From positions 11,033 through 75,032 of the forward strand of contig JAHFSY010000006.1 in the NCBI GenBank assembly GCA_023269615.1: DNA of 64,000 bases. Direction: 5' to 3'. The notes beneath the pieces are model-generated. The model had not been told where the DNA came from. It made no database searches and worked only from the letters and a program-made list of their open reading frames with translations. The position numbers and the translations under genes were made by a program. Shown here piece after piece: positions 6,671-59,869 of this stretch; within the stretch, counting starts at the first letter, position 1, and each line of letters starts with the position of its first letter. Origin of the DNA: Verrucomicrobiota bacterium. GTDB taxonomy: Bacteria; Verrucomicrobiota; Verrucomicrobiia; JABWAM01.

Positions 6671-7417
6671 CTACCGGTTCAGAGGATCGAATGCCTTGCC
6701 GCCCCCGCGGATCTTTCCCCACCAGCGCTCCCAGCGTTTGTTCACCGAAAGGCTCGATTGCCAGATTCTCTCGAAGTCTGTCACAGACCACGCGGCAAGC
6801 TGTCCATGCAACGAATCGAGTTCCTTTTGCAACGCCTGCTCGAGTGACGCCGTGGATGCGCCGGCAAGAGCGGGGCCGAATCGCAGGAAAATGTGCGGGC
6901 GATCCTCACGCATGAATTCGTAACGGCAGGCCATGGGAATTGCGGACAGGTCCGCCCGGTGCTCGAGGATCCATTCCAGCCCGCGCCGAAACTTCAACGG
7001 ACGCTCGTGCGCCGATCCCATGCGACCCTGCGGATAAATCCAAAGCACAGGCTGACGTGTGACCGGCTGGGACGGCGCAAGGACCCGCAGCGCCGACCGC
7101 AGGGCCAGCGCCGACCGGCGCGGTGTCCCAAGATCGGCGTCAAACGCCCCCAGCCAGCGCAGGAACGGCGCTTCATCCAGGTTCTTCTTTTCCATCATCA
7201 CGTGGAGATCGAACCCGAAATGCTGCTCCAGCATGAAAGCCACAAAACCATCCCACCAGCCCGAGTGATTGGAAAAGACAACCGCGGGCCCGCGATGAAG
7301 TGCGTTCCGCAGATGTTCCGCCCCATGGGCATCCATCGAAAAAAAGAGCTGTCCCATCCGTCGGCGGATCCACGGACCGCCCACGCTGCGGGTGAAAAGC
7401 GGGGATTTACTGCTCAT
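6671..7417 (-). CDS. lysophospholipid/glycerol-phosphate acyltransferase (PlsC/LPLAT family)
   Basis: HX4D motif NHSGWWDG. ATG 7417 is preferred over the track start 7576 because the extra 53 codons run through a REP-like hairpin and look non-coding. Confidence 0.65.
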   Translation of the reverse strand: MSSKSPLFTRSVGGPWIRRRMGQLFFSMDAHGAEHLRNALHRGPAVVFSNHSGWWDGFVAFMLEQHFGFDLHVMMEKKNLDEAPFLRWLGAFDADLGTPRRSALALRSALRVLAPSQPVTRQPVLWIYPQGRMGSAHERPLKFRRGLEWILEHRADLSAIPMACRYEFMREDRPHIFLRFGPALAGASTASLEQALQKELDSLHGQLAAWSVTDFERIWQSSLSVNKRWERWWGKIRGGGKAFDPLNR

Positions 7418-8786: not shown

Positions 8787-8789
8787 TCC

Positions 8790-9197
8790 ATGAAAACCCT
8801 CTACATCCTCTACGATGCGCAGTGCGGGTTCTGCTCGCACTGCCGTCGATGGCTGGAACAGCAACCGGGTTTTCTGGACCTTCGCTTTCTCCCGCGTGAC
8901 TCGCCCGAGATTGAATGCCGCTTCCCGGGATTTGTTCGCAGCCAGTATCCGGAGGAACTCGTGGTGATCAGCGACGAGGGTGGAATTTACTGGGGCGCCC
9001 ACGCATGGGTGATGGTCCTGTACGCGTTGGTCGAATACCGCGAATGGGCCGTGCGCCTGGCGCGCCCTGCGCTCCTGCCGCTCGCCCGCAAGGTGTGTGA
9101 ACTCATTTCAAAAAAACGCCGCGACCTCTCGTCATTGCTCGGTATGGAGAATGATGCGACCCTTGCGGCGGAAATCCGGAGGAACCATGAATGCTGA
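8790..9197 (+). CDS. thiol-disulfide oxidoreductase DCC family (DUF393)
   Basis: N-terminal YDAQCGFCSHC CxxC block typical of DCC/DUF393. Confidence 0.7.
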   Translation: MKTLYILYDAQCGFCSHCRRWLEQQPGFLDLRFLPRDSPEIECRFPGFVRSQYPEELVVISDEGGIYWGAHAWVMVLYALVEYREWAVRLARPALLPLARKVCELISKKRRDLSSLLGMENDATLAAEIRRNHEC

Positions 9198-46484: not shown

Positions 46485-46581
46485 GGAGAGTGAAGGGTGC
46501 CTGGTGGCCCTCGCGGTCTTCAAAACCGCCGTCGGCCCGTTTTACGGGGCGAGGTGGGTTCGATTCCCACCCTCTCCGCCA
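46485..46581 (+). tRNA. selC: tRNA-Sec (anticodon UCA)
   Basis: 97 nt. GGAGAG.../...CTCTCC-G-CCA acceptor. Anticodon arm GCGGT-CTTCAAA-ACCGC with anticodon TCA. Long variable arm (GGCCCGTTTTACGGGGC). T-arm GGTGGG-TTCGATT-CCCACC. Sits directly upstream of selD. Confidence 0.9.
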
Positions 46582-46657
46582 TTTTCACCACGGACTTGCG
46601 ATCTTCGAATTCGCAGGGTAATCCAAAATCAGACATTGCCAGAAGGAGGTGATGAAC

Positions 46658-47710
46658 ATGACCCGTGAGCGAATCTTGAAACTGACATCGCTTTCATCCT
46701 GTGCTGGATGAGCTTCAAAACTCAGCCAAAAGGCTCTGGCGCAAGTTTTGCGCCAGCTACCCCGAACGCATGACCGGAACCTGCTGGTGGGCATCGCCAC
46801 CGGCGACGACGCCGGCGTGTATCGCATTGACCGTGACCGGGCGCTGGTCCAGACGGTGGATTTTTTCACGCCCATCGTGGACGACGCATTCTCCTATGGA
46901 CAGATCGCCGCGGCCAACGCCCTCTCGGATGTTTACGCCATGGGTGGCCGTCCGCTCACGGCCATGAATCTCATGGGCGTTCCAACCGACCGTGTTCCTC
47001 CGCGGATCATCAACCAGATTCTGCGCGGCGGCGCGGCCAAGCTCAAGGAGGCGCGCTGTGTCCTTGTCGGCGGCCACACCATCCGCAATCCGGAACCCAT
47101 CTATGGCCTTTCGGTCACCGGCATGGTCTCGCCACGCCGCATGCTGACGAATGCCGCCGCGCGCGCAGGCGACCTGCTGGTGCTCACCAAGCCGCTCGGA
47201 ACCGGGGTGGTCACGACGGGAATCAAACGGGGCATCACATCACGGCCTCTGAAACAAAAGGCCGTTGCCCTCATGTGCCATCTCAATCTGGTCGGGACGG
47301 AGGTTGCCGAGCAGGGGCTTGTCCGCGCGGCAAGCGATGTGACGGGTTTTGGACTGCTTGGCCAGCTTGGAACCATGTGCCGCGCAAGCGGTGTGGGCGC
47401 GGAAGTGTTTGCGGGTTGTGTGCCCGTGATCAGTGATGAAGTGCTTGCCCTCATCTCACGAGAATGCATTCCCGGCGGAACCCGCGACAATCTTGCGCAC
47501 GCCGGCAAATTCGTGAAATGGAACCAAGGCGACGTCCGCTTGAAAATCCTGCTTGCCGACGCTCAAACCAGCGGCGGCCTTCTCCTCTGTGTACCGCCGC
47601 GCCATCTGCCCGCCGTTTTAAAGGTCCTGAAGCGGCATCGTGCGCCATGCGCGGCTGTGATGGGTCGGATCGTGCGCTCGTCGAAACCGATCATTGGGAT
47701 CAGACCATGA
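46658..47710 (+). CDS. selD: selenide, water dikinase SelD, Sec-containing (in-frame TGA at 46709..46711)
   Basis: AGGAGG lies 8 nt before ATG 46658. Translation MTRERILKLTSLSSCAG-U-ASKLSQKAL; U18 aligns with catalytic Cys17 of E. coli SelD (GAGCGCK). Downstream GDDAGVYRI and DFFTPIVDD. The track only shows the part from 46748. Confidence 0.9.
46736..46756 (+). promoter_or_regulatory. SECIS-like hairpin of selD
   Basis: CTGGCGCAA-GTT-TTGCGCCAG, a perfect 9-bp stem, starts 25 nt after the TGA. Confidence 0.6.
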
Positions 47711-49062
47711 AGCCAGCATCCTTGCGCTCCATCCCGGCGGTCGAAAAAGTGCTCCAGGCCCTCGGCACCCACGACCTGTCGCGCCCGGTCGTCGTTGCGG
47801 TTGTCCGACGCGAATTGGCGGCGCTGCGATCATCAAGGAAAGTTCCTGGCCTGGACACCGTCCTCGCCCGCATCCGCCATTCGCTCGAATTCCTGCGTCG
47901 CGCCCGAATCCAGCCTGTTGTGAACGGCACGGGCATTCTCGTCCACACCAACCTGGGCCGTTCGCCGCTCGCGCCGGCGGCGGTCGAAACGCTCACCGCC
48001 ATTGGCTCCAGCTACAACAACGTTGAATACGACCTGTCGGACGGTGAACGCGGCAAGCGCGCTTCCTATCTCGAGCACAATCTCGCCATCCTTTGCAGGG
48101 CCGAGGCTGCCACCGTGGTGAACAACAACGCCGCCGCACTCGTGTTGATCCTGCGGCACCTTTGCGCCGCACCGAAGTGCGACGTGGTGATCTCCCGTGG
48201 CGAACTGGTTCAAATTGGAGGCGAATTTCGAATTCCTGACATTCTTGAGGCAAGCGGCGCGCGTTTGCGGGAGGTGGGCACGACCAACAAGACCTTGATT
48301 TGCGACTATGAAAAAGCCATCCGACGGGAGACCGCGCTGGTCCTGAAGGTCCACCGCAGCAATTTTTTCATGGAAGGTTTTGTCGAGTCACCACCCACGG
48401 AACAAATCGCGGCGCTGGCGCGCAGAAAACGTGTTCCCCTGGTCGAGGATCTTGGCAGCGGGGCGGTGACGGAAACAGAAAAACTGGCTGGACTCGAACA
48501 TGAGCCGACTCCCGCCGAGGTATTGCGGCACGGGGCGGACCTGGTCTGTTTCAGCGGCGACAAACTCCTGGGCGGGCCGCAAGCGGGCATCATTGCCGGA
48601 AATGCGCGACGGGTCGCCGCTCTGAAGCGTGAGCCATTCTTTCGAGCGTTGCGCTGTGACAAGCTGATCCTCTCAGCCCTGCAAACGACCGTGGATCTCC
48701 ACCTCAAGGGTGACTCGCTGGACATCCCGGTGCTGTCCATGTCTGGCATTTCAATGGATGAACTGCGCACCCGCGCGGAACACATCGTGATTGCGCTTGC
48801 GGGTCTTCCCTTGAAGGCCGGCATCGGCGCTGGCCGGGCGCAAATGGGAGGTGGCACGCTCCCGCGGTCGGTGATCCCATCCGTCACCGTCGATCTCACC
48901 CCGGAAAAAGTCGCTCTCCCGGAATTCGCAAAACGCCTGCGTGAAAGCGTTCCGCCCGTCATCGGTTATATTTCGGGCGGACGTTTCAAACTCGACCTGC
49001 GCACGATTTTCCCACGACAGGACCAGGACCTCGTTCGCGCGATTCGACTGCTGAGCTTGTAG
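47707..49062 (+). CDS. selA: L-seryl-tRNA(Sec) selenium transferase
   Basis: ATGA overlap with selD. FSGDKLLGGPQAGIIAG contains the PLP-binding Lys motif. N-terminal MKPASLRSIPAVEKVL is typical. Confidence 0.9.
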   Translation: MKPASLRSIPAVEKVLQALGTHDLSRPVVVAVVRRELAALRSSRKVPGLDTVLARIRHSLEFLRRARIQPVVNGTGILVHTNLGRSPLAPAAVETLTAIGSSYNNVEYDLSDGERGKRASYLEHNLAILCRAEAATVVNNNAAALVLILRHLCAAPKCDVVISRGELVQIGGEFRIPDILEASGARLREVGTTNKTLICDYEKAIRRETALVLKVHRSNFFMEGFVESPPTEQIAALARRKRVPLVEDLGSGAVTETEKLAGLEHEPTPAEVLRHGADLVCFSGDKLLGGPQAGIIAGNARRVAALKREPFFRALRCDKLILSALQTTVDLHLKGDSLDIPVLSMSGISMDELRTRAEHIVIALAGLPLKAGIGAGRAQMGGGTLPRSVIPSVTVDLTPEKVALPEFAKRLRESVPPVIGYISGGRFKLDLRTIFPRQDQDLVRAIRLLSL

Positions 49063-49150
49063 GGGCAAGCGGCATGCCTGCTGTTCCGCTGTAGCCGGGG
49101 TCGTTGACCTCGTGGGGAGTCGCATCTCCGAGTTATCGGCGATCCACGAA

Positions 49151-49174
49151 CTTTTATCGCATATGCGCGAAAAG
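49151..49174. repeat. degenerate copy of the CGACCTTTT..GCATATGC..AAAAGGTCG palindrome (family copy 2)
   Basis: cttttatcgcatatgcgcgaaaag, preceded by atcggcgat as in copy 1. Confidence 0.6.
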
Positions 49175-49222
49175 CTGGTCGGGGCGGCTGCTGGCGCCCT
49201 TGGCATGAACCACCGGAGCCCA

Positions 49223-49256
49223 ACGACCTTTTTGCTCATATGCGCAAAAAGGTCGT
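49223..49256. repeat. 34-nt palindrome ACGACCTTTTTGCTCAT|ATGCGCAAAAAGGTCGT (family copy 3)
   Basis: 17-nt arms with one mismatch. Confidence 0.8.
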
Positions 49257-49482
49257 CGAACCATCGTGGCGAAGGATGATGCCGTGGCGCCAACGACAAC
49301 TCGGAGATGCGCGCCAGTGGGAGGGAGCAGGGCTTCATGCTGGCCCCGGTGCCCCTGCAATTCCAAGAAGTTCCACGGAAGATCGTGTGCGTTACTTTTC
49401 CATCTCACACCCAGAACGAAGGGTGGGTGGAATTGACGCTGTGTTGTGAATGCGGTAGGCTGTTGGGCAAGGAGACAATCCC

Positions 49483-49719
49483 ATGAGCTTGGAAATCACC
49501 ATCGAATATTGCAGCTCTTGAAGCTACGAACCGAAAGCCGTCGGTCTGGCGGAAAAACTTCTGGCGCTCAAGAGGCAGATCGGCTCCGTCAAGTTGATCC
49601 CTTCGGGCGGCGGCGTCTTTGAAATCTGCGTCAATGGAAAAAAGATTTATTCCAAAAAGGAAGCAGGACGGTTTCCCGATTTCGACGCCATTGTCAAAGA
49701 GATCAAGGCCCAGTTGTGA
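49483..49719 (+). CDS. SelW/Rdx-family selenoprotein (in-frame TGA at 49519..49521)
   Basis: Absent from the track. AAGGAGA lies 7 nt before the ATG. Translation MSLEITIEYCSS-U-SYEPKAVGLAEKLLALKRQIGSVKLIPSGGGVFEICVNGKKIYSKKEAGRFPDFDAIVKEIKAQL. CxxU motif plus the GGxFE...GRFP pattern of Rdx proteins. Confidence 0.8.
49538..49552 (+). promoter_or_regulatory. SECIS-like hairpin of the SelW-like gene
   Basis: CCGTC-GGTCT-GGCGG (5 bp including one G-U, GGUCU loop) starts 16 nt after the TGA. Weaker than the others. Confidence 0.4.
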
Positions 49720-49845
49720 CTTTGCCGTTCGGACGGGAGCGCGGGCGTCCCGCCCGCGTTTCAAAACCGATGGCGGGCAGGATGCCCGCCCTCCCGTCCA
49801 CGATGATTGCTTTGGCCCCTTCCTGATCGGTGTCGTTCAAGCTTT

Positions 49846-51876
49846 ATGACCGCCCGCCATTTCATCCTGGCCACTGCAGGCCACGTGGATCACGGCAAGA
49901 GCGCCCTGGTGAAAGCCCTGACCGGCACCGATCCCGATCGGTTGCCCGAGGAGAAGGCGCGGGGCATCACCATTGACCTCGGTTTTGCACATCTGGAATT
50001 GCAAGCGGCAGCGATGAGCAATCAGCGATCAGCAGTCAGCCATCAGCCATCAGCCGACGGTCCACATCCTTCATCCTTCATCCCTCATCCCTCATTCCTC
50101 TCTCTGGGCATCGTGGATGTTCCCGGGCACGAGGATTTTGTCAAAAACATGGTGGCCGGTGTCGGCTCAATCGATCTCGCGTTGCTGGTGGTGGCGGCGG
50201 ATGACGGCTGGATGCCTCAAACCGAGGAACACCTGCAAATTCTCATTCATCTGGGTGTCACGCGAGCCGTGGTCGCGCTCACCAAGATGGACCTGGCGCA
50301 AGGCGACGAAGCGCCGATCGTCGATGCCATCCGCGAAAAATTACGCGGCACGACCATTGCCGATGCCCCGATCATCGGAACCTCCGTGCTCAACGGTCGC
50401 GGCCTTGACGAGCTGAAAGCAGCGCTGGCCCGCGTGCTGGAAGGCGCTCCGTCTCAACCCGACATCGGCAAGCCGCGCCTGCCCGTGGATCGTGTGTTCA
50501 CCTTGCGCGGGGTTGGCACCGTGGTCACCGGCACGCTCACGGGCGGGATCCTCCGTCGTGGCCAGGCGGTGGTGGTCCAGCCTTCCGGCAAAACGGCCCA
50601 CGTCCGCGGCATCCAGAGCCACAACCGTGACGTCGAGTTCATTGGCCCAGGCACGCGCACCGCGTTGAGTCTCCCGGATCTTGCCGTTTCCGTGAAGGGT
50701 CATTCCGCGGTTGGCGACGAAGGTATCCACCGGGGCGATGTCATCACAGGGGCCGATTTCGGTGGGCCAAACACCACGCTGGGAGTGCTTCTGAAAACAT
50801 CGCCCCGTCCGCTGGAGGGCAGGGCGGGGGCGGCGCGCCCGCTCAAGGATGGAACGCTTGTTCACATCCATCATGGAAGCGGCCGTGTTTCGGCGCGCAT
50901 TCATCTGCTGGGCCAAAAGGAGCTAAACGCCGGTCAAGACAGTGTCGCCTTGCTGCATCTCGACACACCCATCTTCGCTTTCGCGGGCGACCGGTTCATC
51001 GTGCGCGACTGGCCGGAGCAACGCACGCTGGCCGGAGGCGTGGTGCTTGACCCCGATGCGGATCAAAAGCATGTCCGTGGCGAAATGCTCCACAAATTTC
51101 TGAAACGGAGGGCGGAAACGCCGGACCAGGCATCTGCTTTTATCATCTCCCAACTCGCGCGTGATGGCACGCTCCAGCGGTCCGCCCTGCTCGTCAAGTC
51201 GAGGTTCAGCGCCGTGGAAATTTCCGATGTCCTCGCGCAACTGTCGAAGGAAGGCAAGGCTGTCTGCTTCGGCGCATGGGCAGCGGATGCCTCATGGTGG
51301 CAAAAGCAACGGCGGATTGCGGTTGAGGCGATCGAAGAAGAGCACCGCGTTCATCCGGAGCGGACGGGATTGTCCCTGAACGCGCTGCGGCAGAAACTGG
51401 GGAGCGACGCTCATTCGACGGATGTGTTTGACGCGATGGTTGACGATCTTTGCAACAAAGACTTCATCCGCGTTGGCGCGGCGATCCGTCGGGTGACTCA
51501 TCGGCCCGCACTCCCGCCGCACCTTCAGGCGGCAGGAGCCAGGGTGCGCTCGGCTCTGGCGGCAAAACCATTTGACCCGCCTTCACGGAAGGAACTGGCA
51601 CCAGACGCCGTCACGCAGCAGGCGCTGCGGTTCCTGCTCGATACCGGTGAAGCAGCCGAGATCGGCGGTGAAGCTGTCCTGCTGGCGGAAAATTTTGCCC
51701 GTGCGACGGCCATCATCAAAAAATTCCTCGTGGATCATCGGGCGGCGACCGTCAGCGAGCTGCGACAGGCGGTTGGAACCAGCCGCAGAATTCTTGTGCC
51801 GTTGCTTGAGCGTCTCGACCGTGAAGGCGTCACGCTGCGCCAGGGCGACCGGCGCGTGCTGCGGCCGGGCCGGTGA
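49846..51876 (+). CDS. selB: selenocysteine-specific elongation factor SelB
   Basis: [19 protein letters not shown] (G1), DVPGHEDF (G3), LTKMD (G4), and C-terminal winged-helix [37 protein letters not shown]. Carries an insertion of about 30 aa encoded by heptamer repeats. Confidence 0.9.
50017..50100. repeat. two tandem heptamer blocks inside selB (ATCAGCN units at 50017..50055; CATCCTT/CATCCCT units at 50064..50100)
   Basis: gagcaatcagcgatcagcagtcagccatcagccatcagcc ... acatccttcatccttcatccctcatccctcattcctc encodes [28 protein letters not shown]. Confidence 0.85.
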
Positions 51877-51896
51877 GCTTCTTGTTAAAAAAACGA

Positions 51897-52035
51897 AGGG
51901 ACACGCTCTCGCCTCGCCGAAGCCTATCCGACTACGCCAAAGCGCTTCGTCGCGACGGCGAGCGGCGTAGCGCGGGCCGTCGTGTCCACCCACGTCACGA
52001 ATGGATCACAAATGGACACGACGGAGCGTGTCCCT
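51897..52035. repeat. nested inverted repeats downstream of selB
   Basis: Outer pair AGGGACACGCTC (51897..51908) / GAGCGTGTCCCT (52024..52035). Inner pair CCGTCGTGTCC (51977..51987) / GGACACGACGG (52014..52024). Confidence 0.65.
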
Positions 52036-52068
52036 CCGTTGCCCTGAGAGAACGATGAAGCAAAGAAT

Positions 52069-53292
52069 TTGGCTTTTGTTCCTCCACGCTTGTGCTATGG
52101 AAGGATCGTGAAACATGGACGATACGCCGTGTGGGTGACGGGGTCCTTTCTCCTTCTGGCCTTCGTGTTTCCACGACATGTCGTGGCAGGTCCTGCCGAG
52201 GAGTATCAGAGCTTGGTGAAGGAATACGATGCCGCCATGCAGGAGTTTTACAAGGTTTATGGCGAGGCCAAGACAGAAGAAGCAAAAGCGAAGGCATATG
52301 AAAAGTGTCCACGGAACGAGAGCTATACCGGTCGTTTTCTTGCGCTGGCCGAAAAACATCCCAAGGAGCCGCTGGCCCTCGACGCGCTCCAATGGGTCAT
52401 CCTTCACACGCAGCATGGCCCAGAGTTCGAGAAGGCGTTAAAAATCATTGCCGACGTCCACATCCAAAATGAAAAAATCGGGCCGATCTGCGAACTGTTG
52501 ACGAATCTCCCGATTCCCATGAGCGAACAACTGCTCCGCGGAATTTTGGAGAAGAACACTTACCACGAAGCCAAAGGCTATGCGGCCTTGAGCCTGGGCC
52601 AATTTCTCAAAAATGAATCCGCCGTGGCTCATTACTTGAAGGAATTGAATCCTGCCTCCCTGGCTGGCCATGAGCGGTATTATGGGAAGGATGGCGTGGA
52701 AAAGATGCTGCACAGCGATCCAAAAAAACTAACCGAGGAAGCCGAGAAATCTTTTGAGCAGGTGATCGAAAAATACGGCGACATCAAGTTCGGTGAACGC
52801 ACTCTTGCTGATTTTGCCAAAGCGGAATTGTTTGAAATCCGCAACCTGACGATTGGCAAGGTGGCGCCGGAAATCGAAGGGGTGGATGTTGATGGCAAGG
52901 CTTTCAAGCTGAGCGACTACCGAGGGAAGGTTGTGGTGCTCGATTTCTGGGGGGATTGGTGAGGCCCCTGCCGGGGCATGTACCCACACGAGCGGTCGCT
53001 CGTGGCACGACTGAAGGACAAACCCTTCGTGATCCTTGGGATCAATAGCGATCCGAAGGAGAATCTCAAGAAGGCGATCGAGCGGGAAAAAATGACCTGG
53101 CGCTCATGGTGGGATGGAGGCAATCCGAACGGTCCGATTGCAAGCAAATGGAACGTCAGTGGCTGGCCGACGGTTTATGTCCTCGATCACAAGGGAGTCA
53201 TCCGCTACAAGGAGGCCGAGCTTGATGAAGCCGTGGACACGCTCCTCAAGGAGCTTGATCAGGAAGCCAAGGTGGACCAAGGGAAGAAATGA
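52069..53292 (+). CDS. exported TlpA/thioredoxin-fold selenoprotein (in-frame TGA at 52960..52962; W-U-G-P-C)
   Basis: Track ORFs 52069..52962 and 52978..53292 share one frame. The junction reads VVVLDFWGDW-U-GPCRGMYPHERSLVARLKDKPFVILGINSD, the TlpA/ResA motif FWAxWCxPC with Sec in place of the first Cys. Signal/anchor segment and a helical N-domain of about 250 aa. Start is TTG 52069 or GTG 52108. Confidence 0.8.
52987..53004 (+). promoter_or_regulatory. SECIS-like hairpin of the TlpA-like gene
   Basis: CACGAGC-GGTC-GCTCGTG, a perfect 7-bp stem with a GGUC loop, starts 25 nt after the TGA. Confidence 0.6.
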
Positions 53293-53300
53293 ATTCTCTT

Positions 53301-54290
53301 TCAGGGAGAAGGTGTTGATCCTTGGGCGACGTTTGCGGCCTTGCGAAGATAGAGCCAGACCCAGCCGTGATATTCCGTGTTTGCACCGGATGAACTGGCA
53401 AAATCGCCGACGAGGAGATCCATGCGACCGTCGCCATTCCAATCGGTCACGCAGATTTTTGCGCGGATGCTCCCTTCGGGAAGTTTTAGAAGAATCACCG
53501 GGGCATCCAGCTTGGGTGCCCCCTTCTCGCCGATGTTGCGAAACCACGACACGCTTCCATCTCCCGCTCCGACAAGAAGGTCTGGTTTCCCGTCTCCGTC
53601 CCAGTCCGTCACACAGGGGCCCGCATCGCCGGAAACCATGAGTTTTCCACTCGGCAGCAGGGGCTGGGCCTGGCCAAAGGCGGGTTTTTCGCGGGTTCCT
53701 TCGTTCGGAATCAAAAACACCTTTCCCTGGATGTTGCCAACCAGAAGATCAAGATCGCCGTCGCCATCCCAATCCACGGAAAAAGGCACGGCAGCCGTCT
53801 GCTTGATCGGACTGCCCTTGGAATCCTTCAAGATTTCGCCCGCGGCGAATTGCCCGTCTGCTTGTTGGCGGAAAAGGTACAGCTCGCCTGGCGAATAGGA
53901 ACCCGTCAAGACATCAGGCTTCCCGTCGTTATCGAAGTCCACAAACTGTGGACTGAAGCCGACGCATCACCCAGTTGGAACTTTGGCGTCCGCGCCCCCG
54001 GCCTTGAGGTAGCTGAAGCTGCCAAAGGAAGGTTTCTCATTGGTGCCTTCGTTCCGGTAGATGCGCAGCCTGCCGCGAAATTCACCCGCGAGCAGGTCGA
54101 ATTTTCCGTCTCCATCAAAATCGGCAACAAAAGGCGCTGCGTGCCCGATCTCGCTGCCGAGATCGATCGGCTTTCCACCCGCCTCGATTTTCACCGGAGC
54201 GGAAAACTCATCGCCAGCTCCCGCAAAGAGCATGCCGGCCGTGAAGGCCAGGCCGAAGGTGCTCAAGAATTGTTTGCTTCCCGGTTTCAT
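53301..54290 (-). CDS. exported FG-GAP/VCBS-repeat protein with in-frame TGA (53967..53969): candidate selenoprotein
   Basis: Track ORFs 53967..54425(-) and 53301..53942(-) are one frame. Read-through gives ...GADAKVPTG-U-CVGFSPQFVDFDNDGKPDVL..., inside one of five D[FW]D(G/N)DG repeat units. Signal peptide MKPGSKQFLSTFGLAFTAGMLFAGA from ATG 54290. Confidence 0.6.
53937..53953 (-). promoter_or_regulatory. SECIS-like hairpin of the FG-GAP gene
   Basis: On the minus strand, GUCCACA-GUU-UGUGGAC is a perfect 7-bp stem starting 14 nt after the TGA. The GUU triloop closed by A-U matches the selD hairpin. Confidence 0.5.
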
Positions 54291-54460
54291 GAATGCCGCT
54301 CTCGGTTCAGTGACGGGTAAACACTCGCAGAAGACCCTCGATTTGTCAACCTGACGGCTGGAATAAACTGTTACGCTCTGCGTATATGTTTGACTTTGAA
54401 CTTTCACCATTATAACGATTCTCAATCAGGTTCGTCAGATAATTCATTTCCACTCAGACC

Positions 54461-54916
54461 ATGGACCTCCTCAAAATAAGAATGTTTCTGGCATTGGTCA
54501 TCTGGTGTGGCGTGGTAGGGATGCCGGCCAGCCTTCGTGGAAGGTGAGGACCGTCTACGGGGAGCGGGTCCCGCTCTCAACCAGCAAAGAGTCCTTCCAC
54601 AGCGGGCAGTCTTTCCGCCAAATTTGCCGCGGCCAAACAGCGCGATTTCCAGGAGAAGGCTGAGCAAGAATCGCGCGCTGCGAAACAAAACACCGATGCG
54701 AATCCAAACGCGGCCGCCGGAGAACAGGCCGCCCACCCGAATCGAGCGACGATTGTGAAAGCCTGCAACCTTGCGATGGAACACGGAAGCGTCGGGGTCA
54801 ACGTTGGAATCACTGTGAAAGTCCTTGAGGTCGTTGGCGATCAGGTTTTGGTTCAAGTAGAATCATTCAAAGGGAAAATTCCCATTTCCTGCACCGACTT
54901 GAAAAAGCAGGGTTAA
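54461..54916 (+). CDS. small secreted protein with in-frame TGA (54545..54547): candidate selenoprotein or pseudogene
   Basis: Not in the track. Translation MDLLKIRMFLALVIWCGVVGMPASLRGR-U-GPSTGSGSRSQPAKSPSTAGSLSAKFAAAKQRDFQEKAEQESRAAKQNTDANPNAAAGEQAAHPNRATIVKACNLAMEHGSVGVNVGITVKVLEVVGDQVLVQVESFKGKIPISCTDLKKQG. Signal peptide and mature part are in frame. Composition is more protein-like than the antisense track ORF 54422..54856. No clear SD. Confidence 0.35.
54562..54576 (+). promoter_or_regulatory. SECIS-like hairpin after the 54545 TGA
   Basis: GAGCGG-GTC-CCGCTC, a perfect 6-bp stem, starts 15 nt after the TGA. Confidence 0.35.
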
Positions 54917-54960
54917 AATTCCGTCCTGGGAGTGGTCGCCGTTGCCCGGAATCGCGACGG

Positions 54961-55938
54961 TCAGGAACCGTGCGGATCGTTCGTGCGACGGAACGTGAAC
55001 TCGGTTTCCGTCTTCACGGTTTTCCCATCCACTTCGAGAACTGGATAAACCAGGAAATTGATCGCTCCTCCGGCGGGTCCTGGTTCCACGACCAAATCGC
55101 GCCCCGTGCTGAACTCGAAACGGTTGGCGGGATGGTGGCCAAAATAGTAAGCCGCCATTTTTGGATGTTTTGCCGCCTCGCTGATATCGACTGGAATCCA
55201 GCGCCCGTCCGCAAGGAATTCCGCCCAGCAATGATAGCCCCCAATGACCCCGTCGTTCTTGTCGGCCGGAATCGTGGCGCCAATCTCAAAGCGCGCGGGA
55301 ATGCCGGCGGCGCGTGCGAGTGCGATGAAGTAGGCGTGAAAATCCGTGCAGTTTCCGGCCCGGGCTTCGCAGGCATGGACGGCGTCACCATAGCCCCATC
55401 CCGTGCCGCTTTTATCGTAACGCATGCGCTGCCGCACATGGTCGTAAAGCGCCCGCCCACGCTCCAGGTCTCCCTTCTTCCCTCGCACCGCTTCCAGCGC
55501 GAGGCCGCGAAAGGTTTTATTCACCGGCACGAGGTGGTCCGGACGCAGATAACGGGACGGATCGGAAGCCTTGTCATCATCGTAGGAGGTCTTTTCAAGG
55601 CGCTTCACCTGATATGTTACCTCGATGATCCCGTCGCTCTCGTCCGAGCCCGGAGCTAGGAACAGGATGTCATTGCCGTAGTCGCGATCACCCAGCTTTT
55701 TCCACCGCCCTGGAGCCGTGATCTTCTTCACCTTCACGGTCTGGTAGGAATCCGATTTCGCAAGTGGCATCCACAGGCGTCCAGCCCCGGCGATCCTGGG
55801 CAGCTTCACCCGATAGACGAATTCAAACTGGTCGGTTCCGTGCACCATTTCCGACTCGTCCGTCGGAGCGGCTGCGACCGTTTCCATTCGGAAAAGAGAC
55901 AGGAAACCAACGAGGATGAGGGCGTGGGCGACCGACAT
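54961..55938 (-). CDS. exported transglutaminase-like (Cys-protease-fold) protein
   Basis: Signal peptide MSVAHALILVGFLSLFRMETVAAAP. Transglutaminase core GNCTDFHAYFIALARAAGIPARF...GYHCWAEF...WIPVD (Cys-His-Asp). Confidence 0.75.
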   Translation of the reverse strand: MSVAHALILVGFLSLFRMETVAAAPTDESEMVHGTDQFEFVYRVKLPRIAGAGRLWMPLAKSDSYQTVKVKKITAPGRWKKLGDRDYGNDILFLAPGSDESDGIIEVTYQVKRLEKTSYDDDKASDPSRYLRPDHLVPVNKTFRGLALEAVRGKKGDLERGRALYDHVRQRMRYDKSGTGWGYGDAVHACEARAGNCTDFHAYFIALARAAGIPARFEIGATIPADKNDGVIGGYHCWAEFLADGRWIPVDISEAAKHPKMAAYYFGHHPANRFEFSTGRDLVVEPGPAGGAINFLVYPVLEVDGKTVKTETEFTFRRTNDPHGS

Positions 55939-56049: not shown

Positions 56050-57681
56050 ATGGAGCGTTGGAAACCGGATTCGGAAGTTCTTGGAAAGGGGGGCACAGCC
56101 GGCGTTTCCAGCCCGAAAGCTTCGGCAGCACCCCCGTCGGATGGAGTTGACGACGAAAGCTTGTTTGGGTCGCAAACGGGGTCATTCAGTTTTTACGTCC
56201 TGGTTCCGGAAACCTCGTTCGCGATCGCCTTCGTGGGGGGCATCGTGGGATCCATCATCGTCGGTGTGATCATATCAAAAATCCGGTCCATGGATGATGG
56301 GCTTGCTGTTGGGCTCAGTGGAAGCATTCTCACGTTCCTGGTGGTGGTGGTAACTTATTTTATTCTTAGATTTCGCAAAGTTTCTGTCTTGATGTTTGAG
56401 CACGGCGTCGAATTTGTCCGGGCAAAACGCAGGACGAGGATGCACGTGCTGGAAATCCGTGATCTCCGCCTGGCGGAATATCCGGGCGTCCGAAGTGGTG
56501 CGGGGATGGATCGCAAATTGAAGCTCGCCACCGAAACGTTTCGAATGGGATTGGAATCGCGAACCCTGCTTTCAGCGACGGACCCGCTACTTGATCTCCA
56601 TCAATTCCTGGCTTCGAAATGCGCAACGGTTTTCACGGTGTTTGCGGAACGGGGAAGGGTGCTTCGCGGCCAGGGCTGGGTGTTGTCAAAGGCTGGCCTG
56701 GCCGTCCCGGATCGAAACGAAGTGCTTTCCCTGACGCAGATTGATTTTGTGGGCGAGTTTGACGGGAAAGTGGGGTTTTATAGAAAAGGGGAACAGGAGC
56801 CTTGCGTTGCGTTTCCTTCAACAAGTTCCAACATCCATGTTCTGATGGAGATTGTCAGGAACGCCCTGAAGGCGCAGAACCGGACGCGAGAGGCATCTTT
56901 CGCATCGGGAAATCTGGGGCGTGTATTGTTTAGCAAGATGCTGCTTGGTCCGAAGCTGGGCTGGTTGAAGGTTGTCTCCTGGATGCTGGTTTTGTTTGCG
57001 GCATGGCTCATCGGTTTTGGAATTTCCGCCGGACTGAGAGAATGGCTTTTCGGTTTCAAGGGCCCTCCCAATGCCTTGGTTGACTGGACCATCACGCTCC
57101 TGCCCCAGGCGGCCTCATTCACGGGCATGATTTTTCTGATGCGAATGGGGGAGCGCTGTGTCTTGAGGTGCCATGAGAAGGGGATTTTTCGAAAGACCAT
57201 GTTTTCGGAGCGCGAGTTGCGTTATGAGGAGATGACCGCATTTACCCACAAGATGACCAAAACGTACTACCACGGCGTCTATGCGGGCACCTCGTTGTCC
57301 ATGGTGTTTGAATGCGAGCCCAGAAAAATCAAGATTCGTTATTCCGCTAGTGTTCGCGGAGCGGATGCCGATTTGGACAAATTGAGGGACGAGGTTTCCC
57401 TTCACGTCGCCCGACACCTCCTTTCCGAGATCAAGGCGGGAAAGAAGGTTCTTTGGGGGAAGGTGCAAATGCAGGAAGAGGGCTTTGTCCTCCCCCGGAG
57501 CAGATGGAAACCCTCTGCCACCCCCGTAACGGTGCGGTTTGCTGACGTCCGGTTTGTTGTGCAAAACGGGTCACTCTATCTTTTCTGGAGTGGAGGCAAG
57601 AAGTCAGACCTTGCCATCGTGTGCGGCGCGAGGAACTTCTGGCCCTGCTTTCTCATCATGCAGGGAACCGTGAAAGGCTGA
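56050..57681 (+). CDS. hypothetical membrane protein with internal duplication (2 x [2 TM + soluble domain of about 170 aa])
   Basis: GAGGGG sits before ATG 56050. Two TM pairs (about aa 45-100 and 345-400) are each followed by similar segments (SVLMFEHGVEFVRAKRR...LEIRDL versus CVLRCHEKGIFRKTMFS...YEEMTAF). No family recognised. Confidence 0.55.
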   Translation: MERWKPDSEVLGKGGTAGVSSPKASAAPPSDGVDDESLFGSQTGSFSFYVLVPETSFAIAFVGGIVGSIIVGVIISKIRSMDDGLAVGLSGSILTFLVVVVTYFILRFRKVSVLMFEHGVEFVRAKRRTRMHVLEIRDLRLAEYPGVRSGAGMDRKLKLATETFRMGLESRTLLSATDPLLDLHQFLASKCATVFTVFAERGRVLRGQGWVLSKAGLAVPDRNEVLSLTQIDFVGEFDGKVGFYRKGEQEPCVAFPSTSSNIHVLMEIVRNALKAQNRTREASFASGNLGRVLFSKMLLGPKLGWLKVVSWMLVLFAAWLIGFGISAGLREWLFGFKGPPNALVDWTITLLPQAASFTGMIFLMRMGERCVLRCHEKGIFRKTMFSERELRYEEMTAFTHKMTKTYYHGVYAGTSLSMVFECEPRKIKIRYSASVRGADADLDKLRDEVSLHVARHLLSEIKAGKKVLWGKVQMQEEGFVLPRSRWKPSATPVTVRFADVRFVVQNGSLYLFWSGGKKSDLAIVCGARNFWPCFLIMQGTVKG

Positions 57682-57971: not shown

Positions 57972-58853
57972 ATGGCGTCCCTTCTTCCATCGCGCGGGTT
58001 GTTCGCCGTGGCGCTCCTGTGGGTCACATGGAACGCGCAGGCGGCTCCGGTTTCGGAGAAGGAGCGGGCCGGGGCGAAGAAGTTGATCCAGGAAATCATG
58101 GAACATCCCGTGGCTTACACTCAAATGTGCGGGGCGCCCACCCTGCCAGCGGAAGAGGTGAGCCTTTGCGGATTTCATCGCTGGGATGGATTTATCGCCG
58201 TCAAGGATTTCAAGCGCCTGCGCGACGCGAGGGAATCTGTGATCGCCGTCATTATTCAGAATTTTGAGGTCATACTCCAGCGCAAAGAGTTTGCCCTGAA
58301 CGTGATGGTCCACAAGATGGAGGACGATTATGAAAGCCAGATGATGATGCTCATTGATCTCAACGGCGTGGAGGCGCTGCCTTCGATGGTCCGGTTGCTG
58401 GACGCCGTGGAGGAAAAGCAGGGGGCGATTCAACGGACTCCTCCTCGCAAGGATGTTTATGATTCTGTGCCAAGTCAGGTTGCCGACCTCCGTTCCGCAA
58501 TCCTGAGCACCATCTTCGCCATTCTTCGGCAGGAACGCTACGAACCGCTTTTGAAATCCGAGATGGAAGGCAAACACAAGAAGTGGATTGAGCAGAATCG
58601 GGACGATCTCTTGAAAAACATGACGGAAAGGGAGTTGAAGGGGCGCATTGAAAAGGGAGAATTTGACTTCTGCAGGGTGGACCCGATTTACAATATCCCG
58701 TGCCGCTACTTTATGGGAAATGGTTGCACGGTACCCCTTACGCCCGAACTCTCGAAAACCATCCGGAGCTGGGCGAGCGATTATCTGGCCAAGACTCCGG
58801 AGAAGCAGCGCAAGGGGGTGACCGGGATGTCGCCCCGTCCGATCATGCGATGA
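57972..58853 (+). CDS. hypothetical secreted protein
   Basis: Signal peptide MASLLPSRGLFAVALLWVTWNAQAAP. ATGA overlap with the downstream FGE-family gene. No family recognised. Confidence 0.55.
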   Translation: MASLLPSRGLFAVALLWVTWNAQAAPVSEKERAGAKKLIQEIMEHPVAYTQMCGAPTLPAEEVSLCGFHRWDGFIAVKDFKRLRDARESVIAVIIQNFEVILQRKEFALNVMVHKMEDDYESQMMMLIDLNGVEALPSMVRLLDAVEEKQGAIQRTPPRKDVYDSVPSQVADLRSAILSTIFAILRQERYEPLLKSEMEGKHKKWIEQNRDDLLKNMTERELKGRIEKGEFDFCRVDPIYNIPCRYFMGNGCTVPLTPELSKTIRSWASDYLAKTPEKQRKGVTGMSPRPIMR

Positions 58854-59869
58854 ACGTGAACCGAACTTCCATGGCGTTGAAGCTCGCCGGTGCGGCAGCC
58901 CTTCTGGCCGTGTTGATGATCACCGCCATCCTTCTCCTGAGCGAGCCCAAGGCACCGGTCGCGGCGTCGATTCCGAAAATCGATCTCGCCGAACCCCCCA
59001 TGCAGCAGATGTGCAATACCGATTCTAAAATCGATCTGGCTGAAGCCATCACGCTCCAGATGTGCAAAAGACCTCTGGCTTCTGAAACACCCGACAACGG
59101 GCATGTGTTTGTGCGCGTTCCAGCCGGAACATATTCTCTTGGCGAAAAAGAACACCGGCGCAATCCGCGTCATGCGGTGAAACTCAAGGCATTTGAAATC
59201 GCCACGACCGAGACGACCAATGCGCAGTTTGCACGATTTGTGAAGGCGACCGGATATGTGACGGATGCCGAGAAGAATGGCGAGGCGCCTTCGTTTCACG
59301 AAGGGATGATGGATTGGGAGTGGACGCCGACGAAGGGGGCGTACTGGCGTTTTCCATTTGGGCCTGAGCGACCGGGTATCGAGGACAAGATGGATCATCC
59401 CGTCACGCAGATCAGCGCCACGGATGCGGAGGCTTATTGCAGGTGGGCGGGAGTCCGTCTGCCGATGCTTGATGAATGGGAGGCGGCGGCGCGCGCGGGC
59501 AGTGACACCCTTTATCCGTGGGGCGACGAAAAGATGCCCAAGGGAAAACCGATGGCGAATTTCTGGCAGGGAAAGACCCACGCGAAGAACACGATGGAGG
59601 ACGGATTTCTTTACACGGCGCCGGTGGGTTCGTTTCCGCCGAACAAGTGGGGCTTGTACGATGTGGTTGGCAACGTGTTCGAGTATTGCACAAGCGACCC
59701 GATGCCGGCCTGGGTGCATTCGAAAAATGCCTGCGTGGGACGTGGCGGATCGTGGTGGTGCTCGAGCGGCACGTGCTCGTTTTTCAACCTCGTGGATATC
59801 GGACAGATGAACAGGAAGGCGTCATTCCCCAACCAGGGATTCCGCGTTGCGCGAGATGCTAAAAAGTAG
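58850..59869 (+). CDS. formylglycine-generating-enzyme (SUMF1/FGE) family protein, membrane-anchored
   Basis: TM anchor LAGAAALLAVLMITAILLL. FGE-sulfatase motifs FEIATTETTNAQFARFV, RLPMLDEWEAAAR, YPWGD, GNVFEYC and RGGSWW. Confidence 0.8.
   Translation: MNVNRTSMALKLAGAAALLAVLMITAILLLSEPKAPVAASIPKIDLAEPPMQQMCNTDSKIDLAEAITLQMCKRPLASETPDNGHVFVRVPAGTYSLGEKEHRRNPRHAVKLKAFEIATTETTNAQFARFVKATGYVTDAEKNGEAPSFHEGMMDWEWTPTKGAYWRFPFGPERPGIEDKMDHPVTQISATDAEAYCRWAGVRLPMLDEWEAAARAGSDTLYPWGDEKMPKGKPMANFWQGKTHAKNTMEDGFLYTAPVGSFPPNKWGLYDVVGNVFEYCTSDPMPAWVHSKNACVGRGGSWWCSSGTCSFFNLVDIGQMNRKASFPNQGFRVARDAKK

Follow-up and report, generated by a model that had tools for sequence, protein, structure and literature searches.

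A probable selenocysteine-decoding locus with five UGA-containing genes in an uncultured, probably verrucomicrobial bacterium

The locus and its decoding machinery

We identified a cluster of genes for the incorporation of selenocysteine (Sec) within a 64-kb stretch of DNA (the window, to which all coordinates refer unless another contig is named) from a 354-kb metagenome contig, together with five genes that each contain exactly one in-frame TGA upon direct translation. The earlier note on this DNA had proposed single in-frame TGAs at 46709 in selD, 49519 in a SelW-like gene, 52960 in a TlpA-like gene, 53969 on the minus strand in an FG-GAP gene, and 54545 in a small open reading frame (ORF), and all five were found at these positions. 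Considering the sequence comparisons presented below, the window very probably contains the Sec-decoding locus of an uncultured bacterium of the Planctomycetes-Verrucomicrobia-Chlamydiae (PVC) group, probably one of the Verrucomicrobiota, in which all five UGAs are predicted to be read as Sec through SelB and selenocysteine insertion sequence (SECIS) elements. Four of the five putative selenoprotein genes appear well supported, and the fifth, the small ORF, is a probable one.

The locus begins with selC (46485..46581, plus strand), which encodes a tRNA-Sec with the anticodon UCA and a long variable arm, and was recognized by both ARAGORN and Rfam (RF01852, 62.9 bits against a gathering score of 47, E 2e-10). 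It is followed on the same strand by selD (46658..47710), encoding a selenophosphate synthetase that is itself a putative selenoprotein (TIGR00476, 366 bits, cut-off 125), and by selA (47707..49062), encoding selenocysteine synthase (TIGR00474, 480 bits, cut-off 268; PF03841, 392 bits), whose start overlaps the selD stop in the sequence ATGA. The gene for a SelW-like (Rdx family) putative selenoprotein of 78 residues (49483..49719, plus strand; PF10262 and TIGR02174) lies between selA and selB (49846..51876, plus strand), which encodes the Sec-specific elongation factor (TIGR00475, 313 bits, cut-off 242; PF09107, PF09106 and PF25461). The C-terminus of SelB consists of winged-helix SECIS-binding domains, as judged by the matches to PF09107 and PF09106, and SelD, SelA and SelB each exceed the NCBIfam equivalog cut-off. 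ARAGORN, Rfam and the NCBIfam cut-offs thus agree with the proposal that tRNA-Sec, SelA, SelB and SelD are all encoded in this block.

Downstream of selB are genes for a TlpA/ResA-like thiol:disulfide oxidoreductase (52108..53292, plus strand; AhpC-TSA PF00578, 78 bits; Redoxin PF08534, 65 bits), a short, putatively secreted FG-GAP/VCBS beta-propeller (53301..54290, minus strand; FG-GAP_3 PF13517, 128 bits in five stretches), a small, putatively secreted orphan protein of 151 amino acids (aa) (54461..54916, plus strand), and a putatively exported transglutaminase-like (Transglut_core) protein (54961..55938, minus strand; PF01841, 93.8 bits, cut-off 23). The strands of these four genes alternate, and they are therefore separate transcription units. 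The description of the region as a single operon followed by a run of exported genes does not hold, given the position of the SelW-like gene between selA and selB and the alternating strands downstream.

The system belongs to a known type and employs the standard SelB/SECIS mechanism. SelD would make selenophosphate, SelA would turn Ser-tRNA-Sec into Sec-tRNA-Sec, and SelB would bring this to ribosomes paused at UGA, being recruited by a hairpin within the coding sequence that carries a G-U in its apical loop 20–33 nucleotides (nt) after the UGA. By this route the UGAs of the selD, SelW-like, TlpA-like, FG-GAP and small-protein mRNAs would all be read as Sec. The canonical bacterial Sec system, of the E. 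coli fdhF type, likewise includes all four components and an in-frame SECIS with a G-U in a small apical loop, which is located 16–37 nt downstream of the UGA (PMC13188914, section 5). Unlike the canonical system, the window has selC, selD, selA, the SelW-like gene and selB in one cluster, a SelD that is itself a putative selenoprotein, and a SelB with an insertion of ~20 residues in its G domain. This insertion (residues ~52–75) follows a conserved FAHLEL and is absent from the six closest relatives.

Hairpins following the in-frame TGAs

Each of the five TGAs is followed by a hairpin. The apical loops named in the earlier note, GUU in selD, GGUCU in the SelW-like gene, GGUC in the TlpA-like gene, GUU in the FG-GAP gene and GUC in the small ORF, were all confirmed, while the gap between TGA and stem, given there as 13–25 nt, measures 12–24 nt. 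In the same order of genes, the stems are 9, 5, 7, 8 and 8 bp long, the loops lie 33, 21, 31, 20 and 20 nt from the UGA, and the energies of the hairpins alone are −13.8, −5.7, −10.5, −10.0 and −11.8 kcal/mol. The published model of bacterial SECIS elements (bSECIS) has a loop of 3–9 nt with a G within the first two positions, an upper stem of 4–16 bp, 16–37 nt between UGA and loop, and a minimum free energy (MFE) of at most −7.5 kcal/mol (PMC13188914, section 5). All five hairpins fall within its loop, stem and spacing limits.

Two results count against the identification of these hairpins as SECIS elements. The SelW-like hairpin, folded alone, misses the bSECIS energy term at −5.7 kcal/mol, and no bacterial SECIS family was matched in Rfam, either at the gathering threshold or at E values up to 10; the Rfam search of the window returned only the tRNA-Sec and spurious miRNA-like matches. 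Of the 2109 TGA trinucleotides in the window, 9.2% are followed at the same distance by a GU-loop hairpin with 5 bp or more, and 3.1% by one with 7 bp or more. At this chance rate the presence of a hairpin is by itself weak evidence, and the weight rests on comparative data.

For all five genes, similarity to homologues is found on both sides of the TGA. The earlier note had suggested examining whether homologues carry Cys or Sec opposite the TGA and whether the hairpins are conserved in relatives. Both comparisons came out in favor of decoding as Sec: the aligned column contains Cys or TGA in all five families (only TGA, in a single lineage, for the small ORF), and the hairpins are conserved or covary.

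These data also bear on whether the TGAs might not encode Sec at all, being assembly errors, parts of recent pseudogenes, or codons reassigned to Trp or Gly. No observation in favor of this reading was found. An identical gene call for the FG-GAP C-terminus is present in two further assemblies from other samples, and one of these, L019, with a single mismatch to the window in 5861 nt, carries the same three downstream TGAs. The TGA occupies the same column across lineages that are 43–75% identical, the residue aligned with it in homologues is Cys and neither Trp nor Gly, and TGA also serves as the normal stop codon of genes in this DNA such as selD and the SelW-like gene. We regard an artefact or a reassigned codon as so improbable that it may be neglected.

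A frame-aware codon-usage scan of the 64 kb identified no further credible internal TGA, although such a scan is weak for Sec residues near an N-terminus. It returned the TlpA-like gene, the FG-GAP gene, and two pairs of adjacent genes only. A small gene at 8787-9197 (plus strand), which starts MKTLYILYDAQCGFCSHC and whose product may resemble a DCC/DUF393-type thiol-disulfide oxidoreductase, is in frame with an upstream membrane-protein gene after a TGA. This TGA separates the two genes as a normal stop codon and is no recoding site.

selD and the SelW-like gene

The TGA of selD (46709-46711) places Sec at codon 18 in the context SCAG-U-ASK, and the hairpin CUGGCGCAA-GUU-UUGCGCCAG is located at 46736-46756. 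Relatives were collected as a set of 80 loci anchored on SelB, mostly from Verrucomicrobiota and Acidobacteriota and with 50–63% SelB identity. The Sec column of selD in these relatives contains TGA in 37 and Cys in 15. The hairpin shows three covarying pairs, and the G-U of the loop is invariant among the 38 Sec-form relatives.

The SelW-like gene has its TGA at 49519-49521 within the motif C-S-S-U (residues 10–13), and combines the Rdx fold with the N-terminal CxxU of SELENOW-like proteins (PF10262, 72.5/22.6 bits; TIGR02174, 62.3/34.2 bits). Its score with NF041051, 82.9 bits, is slightly below the cut-off of 88. The hairpin is small, CCGUC-GGUCU-GGCGG at 49538-49552. All 23 aligned relatives that adjoin sel genes contain the TGA, and the block GCCGUCRGUYUGGCG is kept in 24 SelW-like sequences. 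Among the 80 SelB-anchored loci, selA is found in the neighborhood of selB in 65, selD in 59, and the SelW-like gene in 24.

The spacers on both sides of the SelW-like gene are themselves structured. The 420-nt spacer between selA and the SelW-like gene contains two copies of a 45-nt element (49121-49311) that are 76% identical and 77 nt apart. Each copy forms a palindrome around CATATGCGC, and both are nested within an 18-nt inverted repeat (49121-49138 with 49294-49311). These repeats may be an operator or an element resembling repetitive extragenic palindromes (REP-like). The spacer between the SelW-like gene and selB contains a long, almost perfect extended hairpin at 49731-49801 (MFE −66.7 kcal/mol for 129 nt, z-score −5.5), which has a weak and non-significant tRNA-Sec-like match in Rfam (21.5 bits, E 1.7).

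The TlpA-like gene

The TGA at 52960-52962 is part of the motif W-U-G-P-C and places U at the first position of the CxxC of an AhpC-TSA/Redoxin thioredoxin fold, giving the UxxC arrangement. The protein, for which starts at GTG 52108 or TTG 52069 are possible, consists of an N-terminal signal or anchor, a domain of ~230 aa without a family match, and the thioredoxin fold. Four orthologues, from three Planctomycetota metagenome-assembled genomes (MAGs) and one Verrucomicrobia MAG (L001, L002, L003 and L041; 43–53% identity), retain W-TGA-GPC. A fifth (L004) and more distant homologues have Cys, so that WUGPC aligns with WCGPC.

The hairpin CACGAGC-GGUC-GCUCGUG is located at 52987-53004. The corresponding 18 nt, read as the codons CAC GAG CGG TCG CTC GTG, are identical in all six lineages, degenerate third positions included. 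The Cys (TGC) form in L004 (5758-5823) also retains the whole 18-nt hairpin, nucleotide for nucleotide, which suggests a recent change from TGA to TGC. The L004 hairpin would in that case resemble a fossil SECIS left behind after the replacement of Sec by Cys.

SelD with UxxK, SELENOW-like proteins with CxxU, and thiol:disulfide oxidoreductases of the TlpA/redoxin type with UxxC are catalogued selenoprotein families (PMC13188914, Table 1). Three of the five genes in the window fit these families, and their Sec occupies the position that the catalogued motifs give for it. The TlpA-like protein is of the UxxC thiol:disulfide oxidoreductase type listed there, to which it adds the N-terminal domain of ~230 aa. 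It scores below the curated cut-offs of the Sec-specific NCBIfam models NF041054 (WAxxUGC_long, 35.3/300 bits) and NF053656 (TUGYCR, 17.2/100 bits), and it is a member of neither subfamily; its motif is WUGPC rather than WAxxUGC or TUGYCR. The protein would reduce disulfides in the periplasm by means of its U-x-x-C.

A Cys-type TlpA-like gene (WATWCAPC) is located immediately 5' of tRNA-Sec and selD in four loci of Acidobacteriota type, L038, L054 and L057 (~6720-6960) and L048 (4117-4308). The same loci contain a 27%-identical transglutaminase-like gene a few kb farther upstream.

The FG-GAP propeller family

The FG-GAP gene contains its TGA at 53969..53967 (minus strand) in the context PTG-U-CVGF, and the hairpin AGUCCACA-GUU-UGUGGACU at 53954..53936 (minus strand). 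Among the 120 best homologues, the column of U contains Cys in 68, and in 27 the gene call begins 1–16 residues downstream of it. Lineages with such shortened gene calls were tested in eight cases, and all eight have an in-frame TGA exactly at the U column. TGA is present at this column in at least 44 of the 80 closest FG-GAP loci in species-representative genomes. We collected 52 distinct Sec forms, from Planctomycetota, Verrucomicrobiota, Gemmatimonadota, Desulfuromonas and Fermentibacteraceae, with the motifs G-U-C-[VI]-GF, IY-U-CIGSSPQ, NW-U-CIGLSPQ, GVW-U-CTSSTPQ and G-U-CTGATNPQ.

A core hairpin, UCCAC-AGUUN-GUGGA, is retained across the Sec forms. The pair 21-29 is A-U in 40 sequences, G-C in six and mismatched in two, and the G-C cases are compensatory, consisting of a synonymous change from CCA to CCG paired with a change from GUG to GCG. 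Column 30 is the four-fold degenerate third position of a Val/Ala codon and takes part in stem pairing. G is found there in 48 of 48 Sec forms, and C in 5 of 5 Cys forms, which lack the hairpin. The compensatory changes and the split between Sec and Cys forms argue strongly that this hairpin is under selection as RNA, tied to the presence of the TGA.

The protein has the repeat units and DxDxDG loops of an FG-GAP/VCBS beta-propeller. The blades each begin x-x-x-P-x-V-x-D-[FW]-D-G-D-G, and the U-C dyad is found 4–5 residues before the Pro of blade 2. The Cys homologue P0004 was modelled with AlphaFold2 at a confidence (predicted local distance difference test, pLDDT) of 91; the model has an all-beta repeat core, in addition to a helical insertion without counterpart in the window protein. 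The best matches of this model in the PDB are generic FG-GAP propellers (the Tc toxin TcB, KICSTOR ITFG2 and CRTAC1) with TM-scores of 0.3–0.4, and the fold search of the PDB gave no functional clue. From its location at the start of blade 2, the U-C dyad would lie near the mouth of the central channel; that this position follows from the repeat register and not from coordinates weighs against it. The vicinal Sec-Cys pair suggests a selenylsulfide redox couple or a site for a soft metal.

Mammalian thioredoxin reductase ends in GCUG. Selenoproteins with 'CU' or 'GxUC' motifs have been tabulated (PMC13188914). These proteins likewise have Sec beside Cys, a resemblance by motif alone. Unlike them, the window protein has the order U-C and carries it on a putatively secreted beta-propeller of the Ca-binding type.

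The only earlier mention of FG-GAP selenoproteins that we found is in the S9 table of a study of the planctomycete genomes P1/P2 (PMC4807772), in which 'ASPIC UnbV / FG-GAP repeat' proteins and thiol-disulfide isomerase-like thioredoxins are listed as selenoprotein candidates. The closest homologue of the ASPIC/UnbV FG-GAP candidates has Gly at the aligned residue (PMC4807772), whereas the family described here is a short propeller (~330–450 aa) with a U-C dyad that aligns with Cys. The two are set apart here by their descriptions, and the earlier candidates may be a different subfamily. There is no FG-GAP/VCBS entry in the 2026 catalogue of 119 prokaryotic selenoprotein families (PMC13188914, Table 1), no specific NCBIfam model for an FG-GAP selenoprotein matched, and no paper joining 'selenocysteine' and 'VCBS' was found in the searchable literature.

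On a groundwater contig (L020, 1953-7005 and 9647-10687), an FG-GAP Sec gene is located 3 kb from a formate dehydrogenase cluster that includes an NADH-binding subunit, a molybdopterin subunit and FdhD. Formate dehydrogenase is typically Sec-dependent.

The small, putatively secreted protein

The small ORF starts at 54461 and contains its TGA at 54545-54547 in the context LRGR-U-GPS, followed by the hairpin GGGAGCGG-GUC-CCGCUCUC at 54560-54578. The predicted protein consists of a signal peptide, the sequence L-R-G-R-U, a disordered linker of ~66–70 aa and, at the C-terminus, a beta domain of ~50 aa in which two Cys are conserved; the structure model is of low confidence (pLDDT 51). It has no match in Pfam or NCBIfam, and a word-indexed protein search found no homologue. 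An exhaustive phmmer search identified one homologue, P0121 on contigs L023/L024, with 48% identity (E 1e-15). The sequence upstream of P0121 reads MKTSVKRAMALSIILPFLVGVTANLRGG-TGA-PPPSGSGSRSQ, and thus contains the signal peptide seen in the window protein, then LRGG, an in-frame TGA, and a frame that stays open into the conserved C-terminal domain. A 23-nt block over the hairpin, CGGGGAGCGGGUCCCGCUCUCAA, is 100% identical in the two lineages, while the flanks differ at many positions.

Neither a third lineage nor a Cys form was found in profile scans of metagenome and genome contigs or in a profile protein search; the contig scans recovered L023 only, and the protein search P0121 only. An exact scan for the DNA of the hairpin gave ten matches, all unrelated and by chance.

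The small ORF might instead encode no selenoprotein. The TGA would then end a 28-residue leader, or this region would not code for protein; the hairpin would serve as an RNA element, regulatory or structural, and translation of the C-terminal domain would begin separately, at GTG 54755 in the window and at ATG 3270 in L023. Several observations favor this alternative and weigh against Sec at this site. The codon-usage score of the ORF is ~0 to 0.08 per codon, compared with 0.25–0.35 in the neighboring genes, and is weak both upstream of the TGA and in the linker. No gene is called here on the 354-kb contig, and the caller chose an internal ATG in L023. The family comprises two known lineages without a Cys homologue, so that opposite the TGA there is one other TGA and no known Cys. 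The conservation of the 23-nt block is inseparable from that of the peptide GSGSRSQ, and hairpins of such a class follow 3% of TGAs by chance. However, in both lineages an ATG-started ORF resembling a signal peptide reaches the TGA in frame, and the frame remains open for 122 or 141 codons beyond it, surviving an in-frame length difference of 24 nt between the lineages. The residues flanking the TGA are conserved (LRG-x before it and x-P-x-x-GSGSRSQ after it), and the geometry, 8 bp with a GUC loop 20 nt from the UGA, is that of the four other putative SECIS elements of the locus. The hairpin is not followed by a U-tract and is thus not an intrinsic terminator, and without read-through the C-terminal domain would lose its signal peptide. 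We consider a non-selenoprotein explanation rather unlikely, and the small ORF a probable selenoprotein gene. By the predicted signal-peptide cleavage site, the protein would expose Sec ~5 residues from its mature N-terminus.

The transglutaminase-like gene and the question of a common function

The transglutaminase-like gene is not a selenoprotein gene. Its catalytic position, within GNCTDFH, is a Cys codon rather than TGA, and the Cys of G-N-C-T-D-F-H is conserved in all ten sel-linked homologues, as expected for Transglut_core. A member of the family is found no more than 10 kb from selB in 10 of the 80 SelB-anchored loci, compared with none of 80 control loci from similar phyla. In L041 (8941-9915), L101 (9057-9992) and L103 (8702-9577) it is located between selA and selB. 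The order in L041 (Verrucomicrobia MAG AV5) is the TlpA-like gene with U, the SelW-like gene, tRNA-Sec, selD, a HEAT-repeat gene, selA, the transglutaminase-like gene, and selB. A comparable arrangement has been described for the planctomycete P2, in which selD, selA, transglut_core and selB have consecutive gene ids (Kim et al. 2016, PMC4807772, Fig 6, S8 table), and which was called absent from other known genomes in 2016 (PMC4807772).

The N-termini of the TlpA-like, FG-GAP, small and transglutaminase-like proteins are basic and continue with a 12-residue hydrophobic stretch and then small residues. The Kyte-Doolittle hydropathy of the stretch is 1.8–2.7 in these four proteins, compared with ~1.1 in SelD, SelA and SelW. 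The earlier proposal that the downstream candidates and the transglutaminase-like protein have signal peptides or membrane anchors therefore stands as far as signal-like N-termini are concerned, while the calls come from this hydropathy heuristic alone, a point against it. Export of the three downstream selenoproteins and of the transglutaminase-like protein is plausible.

These four proteins had further been proposed to form an extracytoplasmic, selenium-dependent redox module tied to the sel operon. As a single functional unit, the TlpA-like, FG-GAP and small Sec proteins and the transglutaminase-like protein would constitute a pathway for redox reactions or the handling of selenium outside the cytoplasm. 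The signal-peptide-like N-termini shared by all four are consistent with such a unit, as are the presence of both a TlpA-like Sec gene and a transglutaminase-like gene in the sel cluster of L041, the enrichment of the latter family near selB, and the Acidobacteriota loci in which a Cys-type TlpA-like gene and a transglutaminase-like gene are found within 5 kb upstream of selD. However, no homologue of the FG-GAP or small protein was identified within 10 kb of selB in the 80 related loci, and no other genes of the island, nor any common neighbor, were found near eight FG-GAP Sec homologues or the homologue of the small protein. Four of the five loci with TlpA-like orthologues lack sel genes, FG-GAP and transglutaminase-like genes, and the alternating strands in the window indicate separate transcription units. 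The neighborhood as a whole is thus not conserved, and only the TlpA-like gene (in L041) and the transglutaminase-like gene recur beside sel genes. A single functional unit appears unlikely. Even less likely, in our view, is the more specific idea that the transglutaminase-like protein is a missing component for the acquisition or delivery of selenium in PVC bacteria and Acidobacteriota, which together with the TlpA-like protein, the U-C propeller and the small Sec protein would form a periplasmic pathway feeding SelD. The genes, which are of no use in the absence of the Sec machinery, are most likely clustered because they are inherited or regulated together, and they probably do not belong to one biochemical pathway.

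The combination had also been thought undescribed, and this does not stand in view of earlier reports. Clusters of selenoprotein genes that include unrelated genes are known from the SAO system and the Tso operon (PMC13188914, section 9), and both a transglut_core gene in a sel operon and FG-GAP candidates were reported in PMC4807772. The SAO and Tso clusters likewise contain several, partly unrelated selenoprotein genes side by side. Unlike them, the cluster in the window is attached to the decoding machinery, its strands alternate, and it contains neither SAO nor Tso families.

Beyond the transglutaminase-like gene are two ORFs, 56050-57681 (plus strand, 543 aa) and 57972-58853 (plus strand, 293 aa), without a match in Pfam or NCBIfam. 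An FGE-sulfatase gene at 58700-59869 is next after them.

Implications

Gene callers split or miss all five of the putative selenoprotein genes described here. What is new is a broadly defined family of short, putatively secreted FG-GAP selenoproteins with a U-C dyad, represented by 52 Sec forms and by a covarying SECIS that is lost in Cys forms; an orphan candidate for a small secreted selenoprotein; and a transglutaminase-like gene as a recurrent companion of sel operons. The small protein may represent a new kind of secreted selenoprotein, in which Sec lies close to the mature N-terminus, and the recurrence of the transglutaminase-like gene in sel operons points to an uncharacterised factor in selenium use. 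For the FG-GAP family, Sec forms make up over half of the closest homologues in species-representative genomes, and they are annotated as two fragments. The family would add a secreted U-C beta-propeller without a thioredoxin fold to the selenoprotein catalogue, and with dozens of members in PVC bacteria and beyond its chemistry is testable.

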